18,523 nucleotides of DNA from contig JBDTZG010000085.1 of the NCBI GenBank assembly GCA_040005235.1, positions 1-18,523 on the forward strand, given 5' to 3'. Below, one piece after another: positions 5,217 to 18,175 of the stretch (position 1 is the first letter of the stretch; the number at the start of each line of letters is the position of its first letter). Under the pieces are notes generated by a model. That model made no database searches, was not told where the DNA came from, and saw nothing but the letters and a program-made list of their open reading frames with translations. Source of the DNA: Acidobacteriota bacterium (GTDB lineage: Bacteria; Acidobacteriota; Thermoanaerobaculia; Multivoradales; UBA5704). A program made the translations under genes and the position numbers.

Positions 5217-5300
5217 GGTCGCGAATACGAGGAGAGATCATGAAGGACGAATACGACTTTTCGCAGGGTGAGCGGGGAAAATTCTACAGCCCGGACCCGC
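5217..5300 (+). pseudogene. Probable remnant of a BrnT/BrnA-like toxin-antitoxin junction
   Basis: REYEERS-stop overlaps ATG 5240 (ATGA). The following MKDEYDFSQGERGKFY resembles the N-terminus of BrnA/CopG-like antitoxins; the rest of both genes is missing. Confidence 0.5.
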
Positions 5301-5326
5301 TCGGGGCAGCGTATAATCTAAAGGCC

Positions 5327-5689
5327 ATGTCGCGATCCCTCGCCGAACAGATCGAATTCGTCGCCACCCACCAAAGGCGCCAGGAGGCGGAAGTACTGGC
5401 CGAAGCGCTGCGGGCGGGTCTCGCCGAGATCTATCAGGACGCGCTGGTTCAGGCGTTCCTCGCGGGAGAGGTTTCGCGCGCCTGGATGGTTGAAGAGGTG
5501 GGAGCGGACCGTCTGAACGAGATCGAGCAGCGGAGGGACGCATTCGAGAAGGATCTCGCCGGTGCGGCGTCGATCCTCGCGGCTCGGGCACACGAACCCA
5601 GGCCTCCGACCTGGGCTAACGGGAGACGGCCTTTCAGGCCTGAAACCTCGATTCGGAGCGCGGGCGGCCCAACGGGCCGCGTCACGTAA
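5327..5689 (+). CDS. Small helical hypothetical protein (antitoxin-like), C-terminus runs into a REPIN-like repeat
   Basis: MSRSLAEQIEF...DAFEKDL reads as a plausible helical protein. TATAAT at 5312-5317 lies 9 nt before the ATG. In frame with the upstream ATG 5240, which is an alternative start. Confidence 0.6.
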   Translation: MSRSLAEQIEFVATHQRRQEAEVLAEALRAGLAEIYQDALVQAFLAGEVSRAWMVEEVGADRLNEIEQRRDAFEKDLAGAASILAARAHEPRPPTWANGRRPFRPETSIRSAGGPTGRVT

Positions 5690-5712: not shown

Positions 5713-6087
5713 TCACCCCTTCGGCTCCGCCGCCTCGATCCTCGCCGGTTCCTTGGTGCTCCGGGCGCGGCGCCCGCGGTCTTCGGAGCGGACTCCGAAG
5801 ATCTCGAGCTGCGGATTGGAGAAGCCCATGTGGGCGCGAGCCAGAGCCGAGAGCCGGCGGATCGCCTGTTCGGCTTCCAGGTCGAGCTGGCGGCGGCGGA
5901 CGACCGCCTCTTTTCTTAGCCCTTCCAGGCGCTGAAGATCGGCCTGGGTCTCCCGCAGCTCGGCGACCGTCTGCCGGGCGAGCGCGTAGGTCTGGTCGCC
6001 GCCGGGAAGGTCCGGGAGCACTTCCTGAATGTTCTGGACCATGCTCTGCCACCGGTCCAGCCGAGCTGCGTACGATTTTTCGCCCAT
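5713..6087 (-). CDS. Hypothetical 124 aa alpha-helical/coiled-coil protein adjacent to the 21 bp periodic array
   Basis: GAAGGAGA RBS before ATG 6087. Long amphipathic helices are followed by GFSNPQLEIFGV and a basic tail. No family recognised. Confidence 0.8.
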   Translation of the reverse strand: MGEKSYAARLDRWQSMVQNIQEVLPDLPGGDQTYALARQTVAELRETQADLQRLEGLRKEAVVRRRQLDLEAEQAIRRLSALARAHMGFSNPQLEIFGVRSEDRGRRARSTKEPARIEAAEPKG

Positions 6088-6132
6088 CGGGTTCTCCTTC
6101 GCGTGGAACCGCGACCCCTTTTTTGTGGGGGG

Positions 6133-6141
6133 AGAATATCA
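6133..6141 (-). promoter_or_regulatory. Candidate extended -10 promoter (TGaTATTCT) for the 124 aa gene
   Basis: Minus-strand TG-n-TATTCT about 45 nt upstream of ATG 6087, at the edge of the array. Confidence 0.45.
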
Positions 6142-6153
6142 CACCAGGTTTCC

Positions 6154-6646
6154 GGAACGCTCCGGTAAAGCCGCGGATCGCTCCGCCTGTCGCACGGAAG
6201 ACTCCTGACTACCAGCGGAAGACTCCTCGGCTTTTCAGGAACATTCCGGTGATACCGAGGAACATTCCCGGGAAACCCAGGAGTGCTCCTTTCTACTCAC
6301 GGAATACTCCTGAGTCTCAGAGGAAGATTCCTGAGGTCTAGAGGAATCTTCCGTGTAAGCCTGGAAATGTTCCGGCGATTCAGCGGAACATTCCTGTGGC
6401 TCTCAAGACTTTTCCGGAGCTTCACAGGAACATTCCTCCGAATGCACGGAGTTTTCCGCATTGCTAGCGGAATGTTCCCTGGGGTGTCAGGAATGTTCCG
6501 GACGATCCTAGGAACGCTCCGCCGGCTGCCAGGAGGACTCCGGGGCATCTCCGGAACGTTCCTGCCTCTCACGGGATCTTTCCTGGGGATCAGCGGACTT
6601 TTCCGGTACCCCGGCGGAGCGATCCGCCGGATGGCCGGAGCGTCGT
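6154..6646. repeat. Periodic palindrome array: 23 x GGA-N4-TCC at exact 21 bp period with unique 11 bp spacers, plus a degenerate terminal unit
   Basis: Motif starts at 6154, 6175, 6196 ... 6595, 6616 with no indel. 21 of 23 units match GGA-N4-TCC exactly (6364 has GAA, 6406 has AGA). A degenerate unit follows at 6637. Confidence 0.95.
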
Positions 6647-6678
6647 TTGGGCGCTGCTCGGTCCGGGACGCGAGCGGG

Positions 6679-7407
6679 TCAGTCCTTCTGTTGTCGCGCC
6701 GACCAGCGGGCGAGATCTTCGGGGGTGTTGACGTTGGCGAAGATCTCCCGCGGCGGGCCGAACGACTGGAGATCCGCCTCGGAGAGCGCGGCGACGGTCA
6801 GTCCGGGTTCCTCCGCGAGGTCGTAGAGGGCGTAGTTTCCCGCGGCGACGCGACGGTCGAGCGCGGCGAGGGCCTTCGGTCCGTAGAGGGCGGCCAGCGG
6901 CTCGGCGCCTTCCTCCCAGCGCGGCAGCACGAGGTCGAAGGCTGCCCCGGCCGCCACCTCCGCGATCTTGGCCAGCAGGTGGGCCGGCACGGCGGGCAGG
7001 TCGCAGGCGAGCACCAGAAGGGAACGTGCCGGAAAGGCACGCGCCGCACCGAGCAGACCGGCGGCCGGTCCGCGGCCGGGACCGTCGGAAAGCGACAGCG
7101 CGCCGGTCACCAGGGAGCGCCCAGCGTCCGCCACCGCCACTTCCGCGCAGACTTGTCCGAGGCGGCGAAAAGCCCACTCCGCCAAGGTTTCGACCCCGGT
7201 TTCGCCCTCCTCGCCCTCGCGGCCCTCGCGGCCCTCGCGGCGATCGCTACGCCGGGCGATTTCCAGGGTCGCTTTGTCCCGTCCGAAGCGCCGGCTGGCC
7301 CCCCCGGCGAGCACGATGCCGACCGGCTCGGCCCCCTCCGGCGCGGCCGGGTTGCCGGTTGGCACCGTGCTAGCATTCTGGGCTTCAGACGATTCAAAAG
7401 GAGACAT
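6679..7407 (-). CDS. mobA: Molybdenum cofactor guanylyltransferase
   Basis: Motifs IVLAGGASRRFGRDKA, GPAAGL, LVLACDLP, EPLAALY and FANVNTPEDL. Start is uncertain (alternative GTG at 7365). Confidence 0.93.
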   Translation of the reverse strand: MSPFESSEAQNASTVPTGNPAAPEGAEPVGIVLAGGASRRFGRDKATLEIARRSDRREGREGREGEEGETGVETLAEWAFRRLGQVCAEVAVADAGRSLVTGALSLSDGPGRGPAAGLLGAARAFPARSLLVLACDLPAVPAHLLAKIAEVAAGAAFDLVLPRWEEGAEPLAALYGPKALAALDRRVAAGNYALYDLAEEPGLTVAALSEADLQSFGPPREIFANVNTPEDLARWSARQQKD

Positions 7408-8479: not shown

Positions 8480-9730
8480 TTATATTTGGCGCGATCTTGC
8501 CATCGTGCGATTGCCAAAATCAAGGGCCACGTCCAGCAGACGTCCGGCGAGCCGGTCGATCGGCACGACCTCTTCGACCGCTCCCTTGGCCAGCGCCTCG
8601 CGCGGCATGCCGTAGACCACCGAGCTGGCCTCGTCTTGCGCGAGGGTGCGGGCGCCGGCCTGGCGCATCGCGAGCAGACCGGCGGCACCGTCCGCCCCCA
8701 TGCCGGTGAGCAGCACCCCCACCGCCGCGGCCCCGGCGACCTCGGCCACAGAGGAAAACAGAACGTCGACGCTCGGCCGGTGGTGGTTGACCAGTGGCTC
8801 GGCCGACAGACGGACCGCGAGCCGGCCCCCTTCGCGCACCAGCACGAGATGACAGTCGCCCGGGGCGATCAGCGCCCGGCTGGCCAGCACCTCCGCGCCA
8901 TCCGTCGCTTCCGCCACCTCGATCGCGCAGATCTGGTCGAGCCGCCGGGCAAAGGCGCCGGTGAAGGCGCGCGGCATGTGCTGGACGATCAGCAGGGCCG
9001 GCGAATCCTCGGGCAGGGCGCCGAGCAACACGCGCAGCGCCTCCGGCCCGCCGGTCGAGGCGCCGATCGCCACCAGCCGCGGCCAGGGGGGCGAGCCGGG
9101 CGGGCGGTTGGGGATCGGAATCGCCGACCGCGGGACGGCGATCGGAACGCGGACCGGCCCGGGTTCCCGAGCGGCCGGGCGGATCGGCCCGGTGGCCGAG
9201 CCGCTCGCCGGCCCGGTCATCGGAGCCGTCGCCGGATCCCGCCGCCGGCCGGGCAAGCGGGCCTGGCTCGCGCCGCGCAGGGTTTCAAGCAAGCTCTCGG
9301 CCGACTCTTCGAGAAACGCCCGCAACCCGAACGCCGGCTTGGCCACCACTTCGAGCGCCCCGAGGTCGAGTGCCGCGAACGCGGCGGCCGTTCCGCTCTG
9401 GGCGTGGCTCGAACAGACGACCACCGGGATCGGGTCGTCGCGCATCAACCGGCGCAGGAACGCCAGGCCGTCCATCCGCGGCATTTCGAGATCCAGCAGG
9501 ATGACGTCCGGCCGCTCGCGTTCGATCTTGGCGAGCGCAAGGATCGGGTCGGCGGCGGTAGTCGCGACCAGGTCGGGCTGGGAGCCGACCAGCGCTGCCA
9601 TGAACTGGCGCATGACCGCGGAGTCGTCGACCACCAGCACTCGCGTGGGCCGCGGCTCGGTCCCCGCAGCCGGGGCGCCCGGGGCGGCCGGGCGGGGGCC
9701 CGTCGAGCCCGCGGCGCGCTTGAGCGTCAC
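8480..9730 (-). CDS. cheB: Chemotaxis methylesterase/deamidase with receiver domain
   Basis: Receiver domain (VVDDSAVMR, LLDLEMPRMDG) and catalytic motifs GASTGGP, VQHMP, HRPSVDVLF, LTGMGADGA. GTGA overlap with the cheR stop. Confidence 0.96.
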   Translation of the reverse strand: MTLKRAAGSTGPRPAAPGAPAAGTEPRPTRVLVVDDSAVMRQFMAALVGSQPDLVATTAADPILALAKIERERPDVILLDLEMPRMDGLAFLRRLMRDDPIPVVVCSSHAQSGTAAAFAALDLGALEVVAKPAFGLRAFLEESAESLLETLRGASQARLPGRRRDPATAPMTGPASGSATGPIRPAAREPGPVRVPIAVPRSAIPIPNRPPGSPPWPRLVAIGASTGGPEALRVLLGALPEDSPALLIVQHMPRAFTGAFARRLDQICAIEVAEATDGAEVLASRALIAPGDCHLVLVREGGRLAVRLSAEPLVNHHRPSVDVLFSSVAEVAGAAAVGVLLTGMGADGAAGLLAMRQAGARTLAQDEASSVVYGMPREALAKGAVEEVVPIDRLAGRLLDVALDFGNRTMARSRQI

Positions 9731-10635
9731 GGCGCCTCCTGGGCGAGCGAGGTCCGCGGCGGCTGAAGCCCCGCGGTCTCGGCGCGGCGATAGACGTTCG
9801 GGGCCTCGGGGCGAAAGTCGGGACCCGCCGCTCCCGCGAGGTTCTCCGCGTGGCCCAAAAAAAGCAGCCCGCCCGGCCGTAGATGGCGCGCCAGGCGCGA
9901 GATCACCCCGGCTCGGGTCGCGGGATCGAAATAGATCAGGACGTTGCGGCAGAAGATCAGATCGAGATCAGGGCCGACCGGATAGCGCGCCGCGGCGAGG
10001 TTGATCCGCTCGAAACGCACCAGCCGCTGGATCTCGGGCGCCGCTTTGACCTTCCCCTCCTGGTGGTTCAGGCCGCGGAGGAGAAATCGCTTCCGCAGGC
10101 TCTCGGAGATGCCCGACGCCCGCTCCGCCGGCCAGACCGCTTCCCTGGCGAGTGCCAAAGCGTGGGTCGAAAGATCCGAGGCGAGGATGTCGATCTTCCA
10201 TCCCGCCTCGACCGGCAGGGTCGAGGCGAGCAGCATCGCGAGAGAAAACGGCTCTTCGCCGGTCGAGCAGGCGGCGCTCCAGGCGTTCACCCGGCGCGGC
10301 CGTGCGCCCGCATCGGCCTCGGCCGCCCAGGCGGGGAGGATCTGCGTCGAGAGCAGCTCGAACTGCTTGGCCTCGCGAAAGAACGAGGTCTCGTGGGTGC
10401 ACAGGCAGTCGATCATCCGCACCGTTTCGCTCTCGCCCAGCTCGCGCGCGCGGTGGTAATAGGCCGAAAAGGAATCGAGGCCGAGCTCGGCGATCCGCCG
10501 GCCGAGCCGACGGATCAATAGAGTCCGTTTCGAATCCGGCAGGTAAATCCCTGATTCCTTCTGGATCCAAGCCTGAAACCGCGCGAACTCGGCATCGCCG
10601 ATCGACCGCGGCGGCTCGATCGGCGCGCCCCTCAT
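9727..10635 (-). CDS. cheR: Chemotaxis protein-glutamate methyltransferase
   Basis: Motifs THETSFFRE, WSAACSTGEEP, LASDLS, DLIFCRNVLIYFD and GGLLFLGHAE. Confidence 0.96.
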   Translation of the reverse strand: MRGAPIEPPRSIGDAEFARFQAWIQKESGIYLPDSKRTLLIRRLGRRIAELGLDSFSAYYHRARELGESETVRMIDCLCTHETSFFREAKQFELLSTQILPAWAAEADAGARPRRVNAWSAACSTGEEPFSLAMLLASTLPVEAGWKIDILASDLSTHALALAREAVWPAERASGISESLRKRFLLRGLNHQEGKVKAAPEIQRLVRFERINLAAARYPVGPDLDLIFCRNVLIYFDPATRAGVISRLARHLRPGGLLFLGHAENLAGAAGPDFRPEAPNVYRRAETAGLQPPRTSLAQEAP

Positions 10636-11168
10636 CCGGCTCCCCCGCCAGACGCCCCGTCAAACGCCCCGCCAGAGATCTCGGACATCACCGCGGCCGA
10701 TAAATCGAGCACCGGCACGAACCGATCGCCTAGATTCACCAAGCCGCCGAGCAGGTCAGACGAGATCGCGCCATCGAACCGCGGCGCGGGGCTGATCCCC
10801 TGCTCCCCCACCTCGACGAAGCCGAGCACGTTCGAAACCCAGCCCCCCAGGCGGGCCGCGCCCTCGCTCGGCCGGAAGATCAGGATCGCCGGCCGGGCGG
10901 TGGAAGTTTCGCTGGCCTCCGCGCGAGCGACCAGACCGAGCTTGCTCGCGAGATCGATCACCGGCAGCGCTTGGCCGCGCAGGTTGAGCGCGCCGAGCAC
11001 CCAAGGCGGGGCACCCGGCGCGCGGGTGATCGGCCCGGGCTCGACGATCTCTTCAAGCCGGGAAAGCTCGATCGCCAGCTCCACCTCGGCGAGCGCGAAC
11101 AGCAGGAAGCGCCGTTCCTCTTCGAATGGGGCTGCATCCTCCAGATCGAAAAGCTCGCCGTCGTTCAC
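10632..11168 (-). CDS. cheW: Chemotaxis coupling protein
   Basis: Motifs ITRAPGAPPWVLGALNLRGQALPVIDL and FVPVLDL. GTG at 11168 directly follows the MCP stop; ATGA overlap with cheR. Confidence 0.92.
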   Translation of the reverse strand: MNDGELFDLEDAAPFEEERRFLLFALAEVELAIELSRLEEIVEPGPITRAPGAPPWVLGALNLRGQALPVIDLASKLGLVARAEASETSTARPAILIFRPSEGAARLGGWVSNVLGFVEVGEQGISPAPRFDGAISSDLLGGLVNLGDRFVPVLDLSAAVMSEISGGAFDGASGGGAG

Positions 11169-11169
11169 T

Positions 11170-12957
11170 TTAGAACCGCTCGAAGTCCGGGTCCGGCCGG
11201 CCGGAGCGCGATGTCGGCCCGCCGCGCGAGATCGGCCGGGCCGTCCGCCGGCCCGGCATCGCGGCGGCTTCTGGAGGCGCCGGGGCAAACGGAGCGACTG
11301 CCGTGGCGCGCGGCTCGGGAACGCTCTCGCCGTCGGCCAAGCGGAAGATGTCCAGCTCCTGGCGCAGCGACTCGGACTGCGCGGCCATCTCCTGGGCCGT
11401 GCTCGCGAGTTGCTCTGCCGCCGAGGCGTTCCTTTGCGCCACGTCGTCCACCTGGCCCATCGCCCGGTTGATCTGCTCGACGCCGGTCGCCTGCTCGTCG
11501 GAGGCCGCGGCGACCTCCTGGACCAGCTCGGCGGTCTTCTTGATCGCCGGCACCAGCTCGACCAGCAGCCGGCCGGAACGTTCGGCGACGCCGACGCTCG
11601 ATCCGGCCATCCCGCGGATCTCCTTGGCCGCCGCCTGGCTCCGTTCGGCGAGCCGGCGGATCTCCGCCGCGACGACCGAGAAGCCGCGCCCGTGGTCCCC
11701 CGCCCGCGCCGCTTCGATCGCCGCGTTCAAGGCGAGCAGGTTGGTCTGGTAGGCGATCTCCTCGACGATCGAAATCCGTTCCGCGATCGAGCGCATCGCG
11801 GAGAGCGTCTCGGACACCGCGGCGGCGCTCGCCTCGGCATCCTCCGAGCCGCGGATCGCCATCTTTTCCATCTGCCGGCTGCTGCTCGCGTTCTGGGCGA
11901 TCGAGGCGGTCATCTCTTCGAGCGAAGAGGTAGCTTCTTCGACCGACGCCGCCTGATCTCCGGTGCCGTTGGACAAACTCTGCGAGGTCGAGGCGACTTG
12001 CGAAGAGGCGGCAGACAGCAGCCGGATGCCGGTGCGCACCTCGCGGATCGTCCGGCGCAGGTTTTCGGTCATCCGCTTGAACGCGTTGCCCAACGAATCC
12101 TTCTCCGAGCGCGGCGCCACCTCGGCGCGCAGGTCGCCGTTCGAAATCCCGTCGGCGAGATCGGCCATCGACCGTAGGTAGGCGATCATCCGGCCGAGCG
12201 CGGTCTGCAGCTGACCGATCTCGTCGCGCGAGCTGACCTCGACCTGGATGTCGAGATCGCCTTCGGCCAGCCGGTCGAACGCCTTGGCCGCGGTGCGGAT
12301 CGGCGCCACCAGCGAGCGCACCAGGTACCAGGAAAGGCCGACCAGCAAGAGCAGGCAGCCGATCGAGACGAAGGTGATCACGACCAGCACCCGCCCGGCG
12401 TTTTTCTGGTGGCCGCGGGCGGTTTCAAACGCCCCGGAAATTCCATCTTTCGCCCGCTTCATCGCCGCGGCCAGCCGCTGCTGGATGCCGACGTAGCGGG
12501 CGCGCATGGCGTCGAGGTCGCGGGTCACCGCCTCGCCCGTGTCCGCCGCGATCAAGCGCTCCGTCGCGTGCTTCGCCAGGTCGTAGTAGGCCGCGAAATC
12601 GGCCTCCAGGCTCGCCATTTCGCGCGGATCGAGATTCGGGATCTTCTTGCCTTCCTCCATCCGGGCGATCATTTCGTCGCGCGAATGGTCGGCCTCGGCG
12701 AGGAACTCCGTATCCTTGGCCGCCGCGGCGTCCTGCAGCTGGCGCTGGATCGAGGCGAGCTTTTCGCCCAGGTCGCGATGCAGCTCCCAGGCCGGGAAAT
12801 AGCCGGTCTCGATCGCGGAGAACACCTCGTCGTTCTTGATCACCGCCCGCGGGATGGCGACCAGGATGATCAGAAACGCCGCCGCGGCCACGGCGGGCAG
12901 CAGCATGACCTTGTGGACGACCTTCAATCGCGAGACCAGATCGGAGCGCAGTTTCAT
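11170..12957 (-). CDS. Methyl-accepting chemotaxis protein (2 TM, helical periplasmic domain, HAMP, short 34H-like signalling domain)
   Basis: Hairpin tip [44 protein letters not shown] motif SRDEIGQL, and methylation helices QAASVEE / NASAAEQ. Confidence 0.96.
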
Positions 12958-12963
12958 CGGTTT

Positions 12964-13419
12964 CTAGTTCCCGATCCGTAGCGCCTTGACGCCCGCGCCA
13001 AGATCCGTTCCGGCCGCGACGTAGCCGAGTCCGCCGGGGGACTTGGCGACGAAATCCATCACCTCGCGATCGGAATCGAGCTCGGCGGGCGGCGTCTCCT
13101 TGCCGGAGAACAACAGCCGCTGCCAATAGCTCTTGACCGCCGCGACGTCTTTGGCGAGGACGCTTTTGGAAAACGCCGCGCGCACCGCGGCGCCCGGCGC
13201 GCGGTCGACCACCGCGACCTTGATGCCGTCGCCCCACCGCGTCTCTTTCTTGAGGAAAAAGGCGGCGAGTTTTTCTTTCGACAACGAAGCGGTCGCATTG
13301 CCCGCGTTGACCACGATCTGATACGGCTCGTCGGCGCGGCCGGAGGAAACCAGCGCACCGAAGAGAAGCACGCCGACGGCAGCGACGAAGAAGGGACGGA
13401 GGATTCGCGAGGCTCGCAT
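12964..13419 (-). CDS. Small periplasmic protein of the phosphate-ABC substrate-binding-like (half-PBP) type
   Basis: Signal peptide, then YQIVVN..N....LS, YWQRLLFSGKETPP and VMDFVAKSPGGLGYV. GGAG spacing favours ATG 13419 over 13428. Confidence 0.8.
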   Translation of the reverse strand: MRASRILRPFFVAAVGVLLFGALVSSGRADEPYQIVVNAGNATASLSKEKLAAFFLKKETRWGDGIKVAVVDRAPGAAVRAAFSKSVLAKDVAAVKSYWQRLLFSGKETPPAELDSDREVMDFVAKSPGGLGYVAAGTDLGAGVKALRIGN

Positions 13420-13432
13420 TTCGTCCATCTCC

Positions 13433-14617
13433 CTAAAAGCTGAACTGCACGCCGAATAGAAAGAGATCGGTTCGCGGTTCGAGGCTGTCGGTGGCGACCG
13501 CCTCGATCAGATCCTCGCCGTTCGGGTGGGCGAAGAGGTTGCCGTCGACCCGGTGGTAGGAGGTACGCAGGACCAGGTTCTCGTTGTACCAGTAGCTCAC
13601 CCCGAGCGAAACCTCGTCGTGCTTCTGCAGCGAGTCGAAGGTGTCGGGGAGCTCGTCGATGAATTTCGCGCGCACCCGGTCCGCCCGCAGCGCCGCCTGC
13701 CAGTGCGGGCCGAACCGGCGAGCCAGCTCGACGTAGCCGGCGTCGGTGTCAAACAAATCTTCCCGATGGCGTGCGAATTCGCCGCGCACCAGCCAGGGGG
13801 ACCGATCGAATTCGACGTGCCCGCCATAGGAAGCGAAATCGCCCCAACGGTCCCGGCGCGGGTCGGCGTCTTCTAGCTTGCCGGCGTAGGAGGAGAGACC
13901 GAGGCTCAAACCATCGACCGGGGTCTGAAAGACCAGGCGCCCGCCGAGCATTCGATCGACCTGATCCTCTGACGCCGAGCCGCCGTCCGCGGTTTCCGCG
14001 GGCGAACCGGGAAGCCCTTCGAGCGCTTGTTCAAACGGCACTTCGACGGTAAAGGCCGCGCCGCCGGCATAGGCGTCGTAGGTCGCCTCCCAGCCGCCGG
14101 CGGAAAAAAGGTTGCCGGCCGAGCCGACGCCGTCGTAGGACTCGGTGACCAGGCCGGTCGGGCCGTAGACCGATTGCGCCAGGTTGAACAGCGGGCGCAG
14201 GGTTCCAATGTCGAAGATGTCGGTGTAGATGCCGAACGGCAGGCGCGAGCGGCCGAAATGGAGCTTCGCCCGATCGGAGACCTCCCATGTCACCGCGCCG
14301 ACATCCAGATCGATCGACTCGTCGGCGTCCGTGACGTCCCAGACCGGCACGACGGTGAAGCGGATGCGGTCGGTCGGAGTGAAATCGAAATGCAGCGCGG
14401 CGACCACGTTGTGGGTTTCCGGATCGCTCACTTCGTCGCCTTGAAGATAGGTGTAGGAATTCGAGCTTCCTGCGGCCCACGAACCGTAGCCGTGAATCGA
14501 GATCTTGTCGCTCAGATCCACCGCCCGCAGGGGCAGGCCGAGCAGCAGAGCCGGCGCGAGAAGCACAGCGGCCCTGCGCACTCCCCTCAGCGCGCTTCCT
14601 TGTGATCGTTCAAACAT
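13433..14617 (-). CDS. Outer-membrane beta-barrel porin-like protein
   Basis: GGAGGAGG RBS and signal peptide. ISIHGYGS, FGRSRLPFGIY, many amphipathic strands and C-terminal GVQFSF. Confidence 0.85.
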   Translation of the reverse strand: MFERSQGSALRGVRRAAVLLAPALLLGLPLRAVDLSDKISIHGYGSWAAGSSNSYTYLQGDEVSDPETHNVVAALHFDFTPTDRIRFTVVPVWDVTDADESIDLDVGAVTWEVSDRAKLHFGRSRLPFGIYTDIFDIGTLRPLFNLAQSVYGPTGLVTESYDGVGSAGNLFSAGGWEATYDAYAGGAAFTVEVPFEQALEGLPGSPAETADGGSASEDQVDRMLGGRLVFQTPVDGLSLGLSSYAGKLEDADPRRDRWGDFASYGGHVEFDRSPWLVRGEFARHREDLFDTDAGYVELARRFGPHWQAALRADRVRAKFIDELPDTFDSLQKHDEVSLGVSYWYNENLVLRTSYHRVDGNLFAHPNGEDLIEAVATDSLEPRTDLFLFGVQFSF

Positions 14618-14677
14618 CGAGGTCCCTCCTCCAAGACGCGAGGCCCTTCTGAGGCCGGCGTCGAAAATAGCTGGATT

Positions 14678-16378
14678 TCAGCTCAGATTACCGCCCGGCA
14701 AGCCGGCGACGCGAGCGGCGGACCGCAGCAGCGACGCCAGGTCCAACACGAACGCCACCTCCCCCGAACCGAGGATGGTCGAGCCGGCCAGCCCGGGCAG
14801 CCCTTCGAACTGCGGCGCGAGCGGCCGGATGACGATCTGCTCGCGGCCGAGCAGCGCGTCGATCGCGAGGCCGACCTTGCCGCCGCTCCGCTCCGTCCGC
14901 GGCGCTACCACCAGCAGCTGCTCGCGCTCCGGAACGGTCCCCGGCACCGCCAGCAGGTCGCGCAGCCGGACGCAGGAGAGCGGTTCGCCCCGCAGGGCGA
15001 CCACGCCGGCCGAAGCGCCCTCGCCGGCCGGCCGGTCGATCACCTCGTCGACCGCTTCGAGCGGCACCACGTAGGTCTCGGCCCCCACCGCCACCGCCAG
15101 GCCGTCGAGCAGGCCGAGCGCGAGCGGCAGGCGCAGCCTGAGCGTGGTTCCAAGGCCCCTCTGGCTCTCCAGCTCGACGTGCCCGCGCAGCGATTCGATC
15201 GTCCGGCGAACGACGTCCAGGCCGACGCCTCGCCCCGACGACTCGTCGATCGTCTCGGCGGTGGATAAACCGGGCAGCAGCACCAGCCGGTCGATCTCCT
15301 CGCCCTCGATCCCTTCAACCAGCTGACCGGCGGCCCGCGCCTTGGCGAGAATCTTTTCGCGATCGAGCCCGCGGCCGTCGTCGGCCAGCTCGACCACCAG
15401 AGAGTTGCCGTCGCGATGGGCCGAAAGCAGAATCGTTCCGGCCGGCTCTTTGCCCCGCAGGCGGCGTTCGGCGGGCACCTCGATGCCGTGGTCGACGGCG
15501 TTCCTCGCCATGTGCGCGAGCGGCGCGCGGAGATGCTCGGCGAGCCCCGCATCGACCTCGACGTCTTCGCCTATGAAACGCAGGCGCACCTCTTTGCCGC
15601 GCTGGGCCGACAGGTCGCGCACGGTGCGTTCCAGGGTGCGGAACACCGGCCCGATCGGTACCATGCGCAGCTCCAGAACCAGCTCCTGAAGCTCGGCGTG
15701 GAGACGGTCGTGCTCGCGGTGAAGCTCCAGAATGTCGGCTTTGGCCGTCTCTTCCCGGGCGAGCAGATTGGCGATCCGGCCGCGCGCGATCCCCAGCTCG
15801 CCCACCCGGTCGACCAAGGTGTCGAGCCGCTCGATCGCCACGCGAAGGGTCGGCCGGGCCGCCGCCTCGGGGAGCGCCACCGCCTCGACGGTCGGCCAGC
15901 GGCCGGTCGCCTGGCTCGATCCCGCAGGCGGCTCAACCGTCCGCGAACCCCACGGCTGCGCGCTCCGGTCGACCGGAACGTCCAGGCCGTCCTCGCCGGC
16001 CAGCTGGGCCAGGCGGGAGATCCCGGCCTCGTCCTCGGACCGCTCCTCTTCGGCCCCCGCGGCGGCCCGGGAGAGCATGCCGCGCAAAGCGTCGACCGCC
16101 AGGAGCAGCATCGTGATCGATTCATCCGAGAGCTGCGTCTTGCCCGCGCGCACCGCGTCGAGATAGTCCTCCATCCGGTGGGCGTAGCGCGACAGGAGCG
16201 GAAAGCCGAGCGACGCGGCGTCCCCCTTGAGCGTATGCGCCAGGCGAAAGACGTCGTGCAGGCGATCGCGGTCGTCCGGCGTCCGTTCGAGCGCCAGCAG
16301 GTCGGCCTCCATCGCCTCCAGGTTGTCGCGCGCCTCGGCGAGGAACGTCTGGAGCAGGGCGTCGAAATCGATCGGCAT
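14678..16378 (-). CDS. cheA: Chemotaxis histidine kinase (P1-P3-P4-P5, no obvious P2)
   Basis: HPt motif FRLAHTLKG, dimerisation region LRVAIERLDTL, kinase motifs HMARNAVDHGIE, DDGRGL and SGRGVGLDVV, and a C-terminal CheW-like domain. Confidence 0.96.
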   Translation of the reverse strand: MPIDFDALLQTFLAEARDNLEAMEADLLALERTPDDRDRLHDVFRLAHTLKGDAASLGFPLLSRYAHRMEDYLDAVRAGKTQLSDESITMLLLAVDALRGMLSRAAAGAEEERSEDEAGISRLAQLAGEDGLDVPVDRSAQPWGSRTVEPPAGSSQATGRWPTVEAVALPEAAARPTLRVAIERLDTLVDRVGELGIARGRIANLLAREETAKADILELHREHDRLHAELQELVLELRMVPIGPVFRTLERTVRDLSAQRGKEVRLRFIGEDVEVDAGLAEHLRAPLAHMARNAVDHGIEVPAERRLRGKEPAGTILLSAHRDGNSLVVELADDGRGLDREKILAKARAAGQLVEGIEGEEIDRLVLLPGLSTAETIDESSGRGVGLDVVRRTIESLRGHVELESQRGLGTTLRLRLPLALGLLDGLAVAVGAETYVVPLEAVDEVIDRPAGEGASAGVVALRGEPLSCVRLRDLLAVPGTVPEREQLLVVAPRTERSGGKVGLAIDALLGREQIVIRPLAPQFEGLPGLAGSTILGSGEVAFVLDLASLLRSAARVAGLPGGNLS

Positions 16379-16390
16379 CGCCCCCGTCCC

Positions 16391-16909
16391 CTAGAGCAGC
16401 TTGACCCAGGCGCTGCCGTCGTCGGTGTGAAAGATCAGCTTCCGGCCCCGCTCGCCGCCCACCGCCTCGGCGACGATCGGAATCGCCCGCCGCCTCAACG
16501 TCTGCTGCGCCACCTCGACGTTGCGTCCGCCCAGGTGACCCGCATGGCCCGCAGCGCTGCCGTTCGCGCCGGCAAACGCAGCGAGCACCCGCGCCCCGCC
16601 GAAAACCTTGGCATGCAGGTTCGCCTCGCGGGCACCGGAGGCGACCACCGCATCGATCAGCCCTTCGATCGCCGCATTGCCGTAGCGCCAGGAAGCGCCG
16701 CCCCCCTCCACCCAGTGCGGCAGAAGGAAATGGTTCAGGCCGCCGACTTGGCGCTCCGGATCCCATAGGCAGACCGAGACGCACGAGCCGAGGATGGTCG
16801 AGATGGCCGTGGGCGTCCGGGCGATCGAAAAACCGCCCGGCGTCACGTAGATCCGCTCCCGCGTCTGGATCGCGGGCTCGGCATGCTGTGGTTCCGCCAC
16901 CGCGGCCAT
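16391..16909 (-). CDS. cheD: Chemoreceptor glutamine deamidase
   Basis: Motifs TILGSCVSVCLWD, GGLNHFLLP, RYG, AKVFGGA, GGRNV and GGERGRKLIF. Alternative TTG start at 16939. Confidence 0.95.
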   Translation of the reverse strand: MAAVAEPQHAEPAIQTRERIYVTPGGFSIARTPTAISTILGSCVSVCLWDPERQVGGLNHFLLPHWVEGGGASWRYGNAAIEGLIDAVVASGAREANLHAKVFGGARVLAAFAGANGSAAGHAGHLGGRNVEVAQQTLRRRAIPIVAEAVGGERGRKLIFHTDDGSAWVKLL

Positions 16910-16955
16910 CGAGCCCGCTTCGAAATCCCTGCCTCTCAACGTGGGAATCCCGAAC

Positions 16956-17771
16956 CTAGCGATCCAACGTGGAGCAATAGACCGCAGGAGCGGCCTGGGC
17001 GGCGAGGAGGTCGAACAGCTCGGCGTCGATCGGCGCGAAACGCCCGCCCTTCTGAGGCAGCAGACGGAACACCGCGATCAGCCCGGCCACCCGGCCGTCG
17101 AGCTTCAGCGGCACGCAGGCCGAAAGATGCTCCTCGCCCTCTCGCTTTTCCGCCTCGGGCGCCGTGCCGGCGAAATAGGCGCTGCCGGAAGCCGCCGAGC
17201 GGCCGATCCAGCCTTCACCCAGGCTCACCCGCTCGAATGGGTCGTCCACCAGCCCGAACGACGAGACGCGCAGCAGCTCGTTCGATCCGGGGGCGAGCTC
17301 GTAGATGCCGAACTCTTCGCAGCCGATCAGGTTGATCACGATCTCCTGGATCGCTTGGAGCACCTCTTCGCGGTCGAGCGTCGAGTGCAGACGATATGTC
17401 GCGACGTATAGATTTGCGAGGTCGTTGTTGCGCTGCTCCAGCTCGGTGAAGCGATTGGAGAACCCGTGATTTTCGCGCTCGATCTGGGACAGCTGAAGCT
17501 CCAGCCGCTCGCGGTCCTGGCGGAACGAATCGAGCTCGCGCGCAAGGCCGGAGGCCTGATCGCGCCAACGCGCCGCCTCGTCCTCCAGCCGGCGGCGCTC
17601 GCCGTCGACCTCCGCGGTCAGGCGGCGCAGCTTCTCGTTCTCGGCCAACAGGTCTTGAATGTAGCGCTGGGTGTCCTCGCGGACCTTTTGCACGTAATGG
17701 CCAGGCTCGGTGCCGGCCGCCAGCTTTTCGTTCGGTCGATCCGTCGGTTGATCGCTCGTTTGATCTTTCAT
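16956..17771 (-). CDS. Coiled-coil plus GAF domain protein with no output domain
   Basis: About 95 aa heptad-rich N-terminal part, then GAF-type LHSTLDREEVLQAIQEIV...GEGWIGRSA...ACVPLKLDGRVAGLI...DAELFDLLAAQAA. ATGA overlap with the upstream regulator. Confidence 0.88.
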   Translation of the reverse strand: MKDQTSDQPTDRPNEKLAAGTEPGHYVQKVREDTQRYIQDLLAENEKLRRLTAEVDGERRRLEDEAARWRDQASGLARELDSFRQDRERLELQLSQIERENHGFSNRFTELEQRNNDLANLYVATYRLHSTLDREEVLQAIQEIVINLIGCEEFGIYELAPGSNELLRVSSFGLVDDPFERVSLGEGWIGRSAASGSAYFAGTAPEAEKREGEEHLSACVPLKLDGRVAGLIAVFRLLPQKGGRFAPIDAELFDLLAAQAAPAVYCSTLDR

Positions 17772-18175
17772 AGGGCGGCCATTCCGGCGCCCGCCGGAGC
17801 CGCACCGGCCGACGCGAGCTGGTTGTCGACCTTGGTCAACAGCTCCAGGCCGTTGATCGGCTTGGTCACATAGTCGTTGCAGCCCGCCTCGAACCCGCGC
17901 TCGACGTTTTCCTCTTCGCCGCGAGTGGTGACCATGATGATCGGCGTGGTCCTCGTCCCCTCTTCGGCGCGCAGCGCGCGGCAGACCGCGAAGCCGTCCA
18001 TCTTCGGCATGATCACGTCGAGCAGAATCAGGTCGGGCCGTTCGACCCGGGCCTTCTCGATCGCGTCTTCGCCGTTGGTGGCCTTGACCACCTGGTAGCG
18101 GCCGTTCAGGATCATCTCTTCCATGAACAGCGTGGTCATCGAATCGTCAACCAGCAGAACCTTCTGTTTGAGCAT
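17768..18175 (-). CDS. Single-domain response regulator (CheY/PilH-like receiver)
   Basis: Motifs LLVDDS, LILLDVIMPKMDG, IIMVTT and DYVTKP. Confidence 0.95.
   Translation of the reverse strand: MLKQKVLLVDDSMTTLFMEEMILNGRYQVVKATNGEDAIEKARVERPDLILLDVIMPKMDGFAVCRALRAEEGTRTTPIIMVTTRGEEENVERGFEAGCNDYVTKPINGLELLTKVDNQLASAGAAPAGAGMAAL

Follow-up and report, generated by a model that had tools for sequence, protein, structure and literature searches.

The window analysed here, a stretch of 18,523 nt from an Acidobacteriota bacterium (assembly GCA_040005235.1, contig JBDTZG010000085.1; coordinates are window positions unless another locus is named), contains the gene of P0001, an uncharacterised, basic and all-helical 124-aa protein of soil-dwelling Acidobacteria, and this gene is directly preceded by a long array of palindromic sites repeated every 21 bp. 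Our main finding is that the array and the gene belong together as a two-part unit, a linkage that is strongly supported by related loci: a 21-bp-phased array was present directly upstream in 9 of the 9 intact homologues that could be assessed, and in 10/10 when the window is included. The initial annotation of the window had proposed this linkage, and the search upstream of homologues bears it out for all ten intact genes with readable upstream DNA, at the same distance and in different genomic contexts. We read the unit as a self-contained chromosomal module that consists of a phased array of palindromic sites, a promoter, a leader and the gene of the array's own presumed binder, and we would put the probability of this reading at a little under one half (about 45%).

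The phased array and its linkage to the gene

The array (6144..6626, not assigned to a strand and delimited by register and counts) consists of 23 units of exactly 21 bp placed head-to-tail. Each unit combines a 12-bp core, (A/C)GGA-N4-TCC(G/T) (M-GGA-N4-TCC-K), made of two inverted half-sites MGGA(A/G)Y, with a 9-bp spacer, and the cores run from 6153-6164 to 6615-6626, 21 of the 23 being perfect at the six fixed positions. Unit positions 2-4 were G, G and A in 22, 22 and 23 of the 23 units and positions 9-11 were T, C and C in all 23; the spacer positions carried almost no information. Of the 28 occurrences of GGA-N4-TCC in the window, 21 fall between 6154 and 6616 and share a single 21-bp register. 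Self-identity was 0.53, 0.54 and 0.51 at lags of 21, 42 and 63 and at most 0.34 at other lags, and the best 44 sliding 210-nt windows for periodicity all fell within 6061-6511. Tandem Repeats Finder (TRF) reported just two short pieces because only the cores repeat. The array (GC content of 0.58, vs 0.67 for the window) sits between the stop codon of a MobA-like gene (6679..7407, minus strand) and the P0001 gene, all on one strand. As the initial annotation described, the 124-aa gene reads away from the array, with the first core 66 nt from its ATG; the array ends 56 nt before that codon.

We found no open reading frame (ORF) that spans the array, and the spacers hold in-frame stops, so that a reading as a coding repeat was rejected. 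A blastn search of the array against plasmids and phages gave no match, Rfam held no family for it (matches to miRNAs at E 0.015-0.89 being chance), and full-text literature searches found no description of such arrays. Clustered regularly interspaced short palindromic repeats (CRISPR) have repeats of at least 23 nt, spacers of about 26 nt or more and cas genes nearby; here a 12-bp core alternates with a 9-bp spacer, and no cas domains were found in the scanned window ORFs or in the flanks of the related loci. Repetitive extragenic palindromic sequences (REP), bacterial interspersed mosaic elements (BIME) and REPINs consist of hairpin-forming units scattered over many intergenic regions of a genome, and they are likewise a poor match: in about 190 kb of flanking DNA such arrays occurred only upstream of genes of the P0001 family and nowhere else, isolated core 12-mers were not enriched in these flanks (22 observed vs 15.2 expected), and the core halves showed no pairing covariation.

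The related loci came from one scan of the GTDB species genomes with an 18-sequence alignment (A4), which reaches relatives of at least 45% identity and yielded 12 loci (L001-L012) in 6 Acidobacteriota metagenome-assembled genomes (MAGs); all linkage evidence comes from MAG assemblies of one class (Thermoanaerobaculia, Acidobacteriota). The linkage was assessed for the intact homologues that had 300 bp or more of DNA upstream, namely for seven class-A genes (L001, L002, L003, L005, L006, L007 and L008, 77-89% identity, eight with the window) and two class-B paralogues (L009 and L010, 54-58% identity). Outside this count stand L004, whose contig begins 37 bp before the ATG, and the degraded copies L011 and L012; none of the three is a counter-example. 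The seven class-A loci all have GGA-N4-TCC arrays, with 22-26 units each, and the distance from GGA to the ATG was 13 modulo 21 in 8/8 class-A loci including the window. Per class-A locus, 21/21, 19/20, 22/22, 22/22, 15/15, 18/18, 19/19 and 17/18 cores were in phase. The arrays are 0.45-0.55 kb long and the whole module measures about 1 kb.

The module occurs in at least five genomic contexts. A mobA gene lies upstream of it in the window, L001, L002, L007, L008 and L011, and other upstream neighbours were a tRNA-Pro gene (L003), a TPR/unknown gene (L005), a peptidase S10 gene (L006) and an unknown gene of 1024 aa (L010). Between contexts, similarity starts about 25 bp before the first unit, in an A-rich half-unit, and stops at the stop codon. 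Two to three copies per MAG are possible, and classes A and B were found together in the same MAG (L002 with L009; L004/L011 with L010). The module has been copied as a unit. A Pfam scan of 67 of the 98 greedily picked ORFs within about 4 kb of the homologues detected neither a transposase or integrase nor a conserved partner gene near it (ORFs overlapping an array or gene and some distal ORFs were left out).

The cores and the spacers differ strongly in conservation. For 194 units from the 8 class-A arrays (window included), 153 of them with perfect GGA/TCC, identity between loci was 0.83-0.97 at the six fixed core positions and 0.36-0.61 in the spacers (random level, taken within an array, 0.28-0.35), and it is shown by these values that selection acts on the cores. 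Whole-unit gaps sufficed for the unit-by-unit alignments. When the 10-nt strings formed by the last core base and the 9-nt spacer (unit positions 12-21) were compared among the 194 units, only two recurred, and class A showed neither palindromic spacers nor a 42-bp super-period. In L002 two adjacent units (277-318) are identical over 21 bp, indicating a recent unit duplication. Since 21 bp corresponds to two turns of B-DNA, every site faces the same side of the helix.

Proteins of different clades have different array cores. The proteins of L009 and L010 form a separate clade (100/100 support), and the array of L010 consists of 10.5 copies of a 42-bp unit, equivalent to 17 CACYGGTG cores at steps of 21 bp (one step being 20). 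Of the 16 occurrences of the CACCGGTG core in the 20-kb L010 locus, 15 fall in the array, and the L009 contig starts inside a related 42-bp array. A third type may be hidden in P0071, a protein of 284 aa whose last 118 residues are 42% identical to P0001. Its residues 29-140 make up 16 strict heptads (E/K)-V-D-F-x-x-R (lag-7 identity of 0.31 vs about 0.04), a run seen only in this protein among the 71 checked, and the heptads are followed by Y-E-G-G-S-M, which on back-translation gives a Shine-Dalgarno sequence before the homologous Met. The heptads are probably an upstream 21-nt array of a third type that was translated by the gene caller, in which the codons for K-V-D-F would form a AAGTCGACTT-type palindrome. 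As P0071 would illustrate, gene callers can take such arrays for heptad-repeat extensions of a protein.

Several neighbouring features were also observed. In L003 the module begins about 125 bp after tRNA-Pro(GGG) (6788-6864 of that locus) and the contig ends about 300 bp past the gene. Just downstream of the module lie genes for a Uma2-type nuclease (L001, 10454-11083), a PIN protein (L009, 1009-1557) and Fic/Doc and PIN proteins (L010, 10545-11848), and the region 3' of the P0001-family gene looks like an insertion hot spot. In L011 (9957-10399) five array units are joined to about codon 22, with the promoter, leader and N-terminus gone, as a degraded or mis-assembled copy, and L012 (9400-10240) retains just some 60 codons from the 3' end of a class-B-like gene, directly behind a MazE/AbrB-like and PIN pair located where the array would be. 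In the window itself, the initial annotation had seen toxin-antitoxin (TA) remnants and a REPIN-like repeat beside the gene, neither of which held up: Pfam and NCBIfam gave nothing for the 149-aa ORF at 5240-5689, not even at E<=1, and the repeat is a sub-threshold match to the Acido-Lenti-1 RNA motif (5597-5641, plus strand, 30.8 bits vs a gathering score of 37, E 0.00017). A near-identical sequence to this match lies downstream of the homologue in L002. On the other side of the array, positions 9727-18175 hold a chemotaxis cluster (encoding CheR, a methyl-accepting chemotaxis protein with HAMP, a CheA-CheW fusion, a GAF protein and a response regulator) that is unrelated to the module.

Putative promoter, leader and the helical protein

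The P0001 gene (5713..6087, minus strand; ORF and translation, with an ATG start) is preceded by a Shine-Dalgarno sequence, AAGGAGA (6093..6099, minus strand), 5-11 nt before the ATG, of which AGGAG is invariant in 9/9 aligned leaders; the good ribosome-binding site in the initial annotation is this element, with GGAG at 7-10 nt. Just 5' of it, the leader alignment revealed a hairpin TCGCG-N6-CGCGA (6099..6114, not assigned to a strand); L002 retains its stem but has another loop, and in L004, L005 and L007 the stem is weaker. Together with CCCCTTTTTT on the opposite (plus) strand, this hairpin resembles a terminator (6099-6124), which may halt antisense transcription before it reaches the array. 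Between the array and the gene we also found an extended -10-like element, TG-N-TATTCT (6133..6141, minus strand; identified by its conservation), starting 3 nt after the last unit in the window and 3-11 nt after it across the class-A leaders, of which TGnTA is kept in 8/8 class-A leaders that reach that far; it is followed by an A-run, the small conserved hairpin and the Shine-Dalgarno sequence. A generic sigma-70 scan gave no full -35/-10 promoter, so that the assignment of this element as the likely promoter of the P0001 gene derives from its conservation. The position of the element would place the array upstream of the promoter and outside the gene's own transcript. With a transcription start about 7 nt past the -10-like element (an estimate), the last core would be centred near -32.5, and in several loci the promoter-proximal cores are the most degenerate ones. 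At its distal end the module is bordered by a conserved A-rich stretch and half-unit (AAACGACGCTCCGG...CCGG in gene orientation; 6627..6650, not assigned to a strand), which is conserved in L003 and L006 across their differing upstream genes; the sequence further upstream is not.

P0001 (pI 9.67) had been called an orphan, for which we found no ground: it has 17 close homologues (78-89% identity, in Thermoanaerobaculia/Acidobacteriota MAGs), and an exhaustive search of 1.84 billion representatives returned 30 at E<=1e-3 (3 at E<=1e-10). These are 24-87% identical to P0001 (25-45% except for P0004 and two fragments, P0022 and P0034), and most of them have 120-165 aa and align end-to-end at 25-45% identity; a profile search of the family gave 32 proteins. 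The family signature, taken from alignments A1, A2 and A3, comprises a length of about 120-170 aa, an N-terminal S-[FY]-A-x5-W, heptad helices and G-F-x3-x-L-x2-F-G-x2-[PS]-R followed by a basic run. P0001 fits this signature, its conserved motif G-F-x-N-P-x-L-E-x-F-G-V-R-S-E-D-R-x-R-R-x-R being followed by a disordered tail, and its translation includes GFSNPQLEIFGV and the Arg-rich RGRRARSTK, both of which the initial annotation had pointed out. A distant subfamily (P0046 and P0050-P0064), of which some members are on contigs of 0.2-3.2 Mb, is marked by an N-terminal extension that is conserved and rich in Thr and Pro (MSTDTNT...NPAKG). The idea that QLEIF is a clamp-binding motif was dropped because the Q is not conserved in distant homologues.

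Searches of the family with Pfam, NCBIfam, PHROGs and PADLOC gave sub-threshold noise only, for instance ChrB_N (E 0.0015, 2/28 members) and, among the PADLOC models, none of which rose above noise, LmuB coiled-coil models (at most 2/28 members, best E 0.0008). The best hit of a PDB sequence profile search had E 0.029, Foldseek returned nothing at E<=0.001 from PDB (searched twice, best E 0.59 and 1.9) or the viral BFVD (best E 0.79), and the ESM Atlas search found only Acidobacteriota clusters without names.

The AlphaFold2 (AF2) model built from 42 sequences (predicted local distance difference test, pLDDT, 87.2) has a helix at residues 6-26, a single long helix at 31-87, two short C-terminal helices and a disordered tail; in the model from 18 sequences the long helix is interrupted at 54-58. 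Hydrophobic residues are heptad-spaced throughout residues 6-87 family-wide, including the heptad pattern over 31-87, and Gly56 is nearly invariant. A homodimer was predicted with a score of 0.64 (0.64, 0.64 and 0.63 in three runs), compared with 0.00 for the best control; in the benchmark of this score, the mark was reached by 20/30 proteins solved as pairs of one chain and by 1/23 solved as single chains. The runs agreed in at least 88% of the contacts, with a partner pLDDT of at least 74. The predicted contacts (54-54, 51-61, 47-65, 44-68 and 37-76) run the long helices antiparallel, and P0001 is predicted to be an antiparallel coiled-coil dimer, in agreement with the earlier suggestion of a self-associating coiled-coil protein. 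Antiparallel pairing about Gly56 would place one basic C-terminal motif at each end of the rod.

From these elements we propose the following mechanism. Rod-like antiparallel coiled-coil dimers, predicted to carry the conserved basic C-terminal motif at each end, would recognise the inverted half-sites and, because all sites lie on one helix face at a fixed spacing, could tile the array cooperatively into one continuous nucleoprotein filament. With a helix rise of 1.5 Å per residue the rod would measure about 85-95 Å, similar in magnitude to a 21-bp unit with its length of about 71 Å. Such a rod, with a head at either end, could reach across one spacer, and neighbouring rods could share the palindrome between them; this geometry would account for the palindromic cores, for spacers whose sequence does not matter and for the rigid period. 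The units nearest the gene, which are often weaker, would overlap the -35 region; given the last core near -32.5 and the degenerate promoter-proximal cores, the occupied array would be expected to repress the gene after its better sites have been taken up, and a full array would shut it off. The specificity classes, which are protein clades that each have a core of their own, would coexist in one genome without cross-talk. Our best guess for the function is that the coated array is a centromere-like or positional landmark without an adjacent nucleoside triphosphatase (NTPase). A bolder idea, for which we see a tentative case with the odds leaning against it, is that the modules are an undescribed type of chromosomal element, a set of orthogonal 'addresses': the rod dimer, from a family without known relatives, would act as a molecular ruler whose polymerisation is restricted to its own array, in which about 23 palindromes follow each other at two helical turns, and yields a defined nucleoprotein particle of about 0.5 kb, with several recognition codes per genome that duplicate to new sites, and without a ParA, ParM or TubZ motor. 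If true, such 'address' modules could act as positional landmarks, boundary elements or titration devices.

Several observations weigh against our reading of the module. All loci belong to one Acidobacteriota class, so that part of the co-occurrence could reflect shared ancestry; below about 45% identity the upstream DNA is known only indirectly, for P0071; and MAG assemblies can collapse repeats, near-identical class-B units especially. L009 encodes a class-B protein behind an array without the CACCGGTG palindrome. The genes of L003 and L006 are 95% identical (DNA) and the spacers of their aligned units only 0.42 identical, which could be due to gene conversion, by which gene copies are homogenised, or to a fast turnover of units. 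On the protein side, Pfam, the PDB profile search and Foldseek found no helix-turn-helix (HTH), ribbon-helix-helix (RHH) or other known DNA-binding fold in P0001, the two AF2 models differ in whether residues 31-87 form one helix or two, and helical proteins are easy to pair in silico. The basic C-terminal motif, the most conserved one, is nearly identical in classes A and B despite their differing cores and can therefore not be the specificity element; specificity must lie outside it, possibly in residues 20-60, where the classes differ, as the candidate region. Finally, no NTPase or other conserved partner was found among the scanned window ORFs or the 67 flanking ORFs, and a centromere role would have to be one without a motor.

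Alternative explanations for the array

The alternative that survives best, although we judge it improbable, is that the array provides phased sites for an unlinked host protein (a lineage-specific regulator or a nucleoid protein) and that P0001 is the product of a merely controlled gene and no DNA binder itself. The position of the array upstream of the promoter-like element, as expected for a regulatory region, agrees with this, as do the absence of a recognisable DNA-binding fold in P0001 and the fact that its most conserved motif is the same between classes with different cores. However, each protein clade has its own array type, so that a separate binder would have had to change in step with it, and the module moves as a unit whose borders enclose nothing other than the array and the P0001 gene. 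A regulon is not visible either, as the core is not enriched in the rest of the 190 kb or so, and twenty-odd sites are in our judgement unusual for plain regulation.

We consider it far less probable that the module serves defence or addiction, with a harmful nucleoid-binding protein that is titrated by its cognate array and kept down by autorepression, and that is freed when the array is lost or damaged, for instance by DNA degradation in infection. The neighbours of TA or nuclease type (Uma2 in L001, PIN in L009, Fic/Doc and PIN in L010 and the MazE-like/PIN pair at the remnant in L012) are typical of variable islands and would suit such a role, and so would the presence of multiple copies of which some are degraded (L011, L012). 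Yet the neighbours of the module differ at every locus, several copies stand between housekeeping genes, and no PADLOC model scored above noise for the P0001 family.

Marginally weaker still is the case for an RNA-level pair, in which the array is transcribed to a repeat RNA that binds P0001, either as a ribonucleoprotein or in the manner of the type III TA systems that the initial annotation had invoked. Read-through transcription is conceivable, since in six loci mobA precedes the array on the same strand, and the array RNA folds far better than shuffled sequences (z = -12.1), but such a strong fold follows trivially from 23 mutually complementary palindromes. The variable positions of the core halves do not covary: among the 153 perfect units, positions 1/12 were complementary in 78 (64.7 expected, p=0.20), positions 5/8 in 63 (64.0 expected, p=0.47) and positions 6/7 in 33 (45.6 expected). 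This independence of the half-sites points to double-stranded DNA that is read by a two-fold symmetric protein and not to a hairpin. In addition, the strict 21-nt phase, locked to the promoter, has a structural meaning for B-DNA and none for RNA, the promoter-like element lies between the array and the gene, which leaves the array upstream of the promoter, and neither an Rfam match nor a ToxN-like family was found; the repeats of type III antitoxins, moreover, are direct repeats of about 34-36 nt.

The least credible reading, a functionless array that is a decaying satellite co-inherited with the gene, can draw on the origin of all loci from one bacterial class and on ordinary repeat dynamics (whole-unit gains and losses and one fresh duplication, of the L002 units at 277 and 298), but decay would erode cores and spacers alike, whereas six positions stay 0.83-0.97 identical beside near-random spacers, the phase to the ATG is identical in 8/8 loci and the diverged paralogues have arrays of another sequence with the same period.

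Comparison with known iterated-site systems

Plasmid centromeres and some operators are built around arrays of iterated binding sites that lie next to the gene of the binding protein, and the array-and-binder module proposed here is best compared with these. In type II partition, the centromere-binding protein ParR is an RHH protein that works with the actin-like ParM. The parC sites of R1 and pSK41 are described as being cooperatively bound by a small protein, which thereby autoregulates as well (PMC5016525). Like these systems, the module has tandem repeats upstream of the gene at its promoter, with the window array ending 56 nt before the ATG and the -10-like element in between. Unlike ParR, P0001 is all-helical without any beta strand in the AF2 models and has no RHH match in Pfam; moreover, no gene for an actin-like NTPase was found in the scanned window ORFs or the 67 flanking ORFs, the sites in the window are palindromic, number about 23 and are spaced at 21 bp, and the module is chromosomal and multi-copy.

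In type I partition, SopB is an HTH protein of the ParB type with SopA as its partner. The sopC site of the F plasmid is described as a tandem of 12 direct 43-bp repeats, and SopB binds the 16-bp inverted repeat that is present in each of them (PMC3177203, PMC5016525). The module is like sopC in that each tandem unit has one inverted-repeat site; in sopC, however, the whole 43-bp unit repeats, whereas the module conserves just the 12-bp core, with unique spacers in between. In addition, ParA, CbiA or ParB domains were not found in the scanned window ORFs or the flanks, P0001 belongs to no Pfam family above threshold, and tblastn searches of P0001, P0041 and P0056 against plasmids, and of P0001 against phages, gave no match.

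The iterons of the omega repressor are 7-bp units on plasmids, bound by an RHH protein with a ParA partner. For the omega repressor of pSM19035 it is described that 7-10 contiguous short iterons overlap the promoters, that the protein wraps the DNA in a continuous protein helix which covers only the array and that the affinity depends on the number of iterons (PMC5016525). The filament that we propose would resemble this protein helix, but with units of 21 bp that have palindromic cores and with a helical protein. Helical autoregulators of the KfrA type have an HTH at the N-terminus, then a long coiled-coil tail, and a repeated operator at their own promoter. KfrA of plasmid RA3 is described as an alpha-helical, oligomerising DNA-binding autoregulator of 345-355 aa with an N-terminal HTH, whose short-repeat operator, of five 9-bp repeats, overlaps its own promoter (PMC7783346). 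The module likewise has repeated sites at its own promoter, and P0001 is helical with a predicted dimer. It differs from KfrA in its size of 124 aa, in its number of sites (about 23) and in the lack of an HTH by Pfam, PDB profile and fold search, and no sequence relation was found; Pfam matches to KleA/KleC and similar families were single-member noise.

Proteins of the pSK1 Par and RacA type combine an HTH with a membrane or pole-anchoring part. The Par protein of pSK1 has been called a single-protein partition system (PMC11500499). P0001 would be similar as a single coiled-coil protein that acts on DNA sites without an NTPase of its own, if its presumed DNA binding is accepted; it differs in that neither HTH nor anchoring domains were found in it.

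In type III TA systems, the direct RNA repeats form pseudoknots, a terminator lies between the array and the gene, and the toxin is an endoribonuclease. The module is like ToxIN in having a tandem array directly upstream of a small gene. It differs from it in the unit of 21 nt, in the conservation of the palindromic core only, with halves that do not covary, and in the predicted fold, a helical hairpin or rod; no ToxN/AbiQ-type match was found with Pfam or PADLOC, and there is no terminator-like site on the gene strand between the array and the ATG, the sole match being on the opposite strand.

Because none of the known folds or partner NTPases was found, the module works like the known partition and operator systems at most. 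If P0001 does bind its array, this would add a new DNA-recognition scaffold, with naturally orthogonal protein/site pairs that could be used as tags or synthetic operators, and it would raise a new question on chromosome organisation in Acidobacteria, a poorly studied phylum on whose chromosomes these arrays lie. To our knowledge, the iterated-site arrays known so far beside the gene of their binder belong to RHH or HTH proteins, have from a handful to a dozen sites and are found on plasmids with a motor protein. Compared with these, the new aspects of the module are a protein family without known fold relatives, long and strictly phased arrays of 22-26 sites, a chromosomal and multi-copy location without a motor, and the coexistence of specificity classes.

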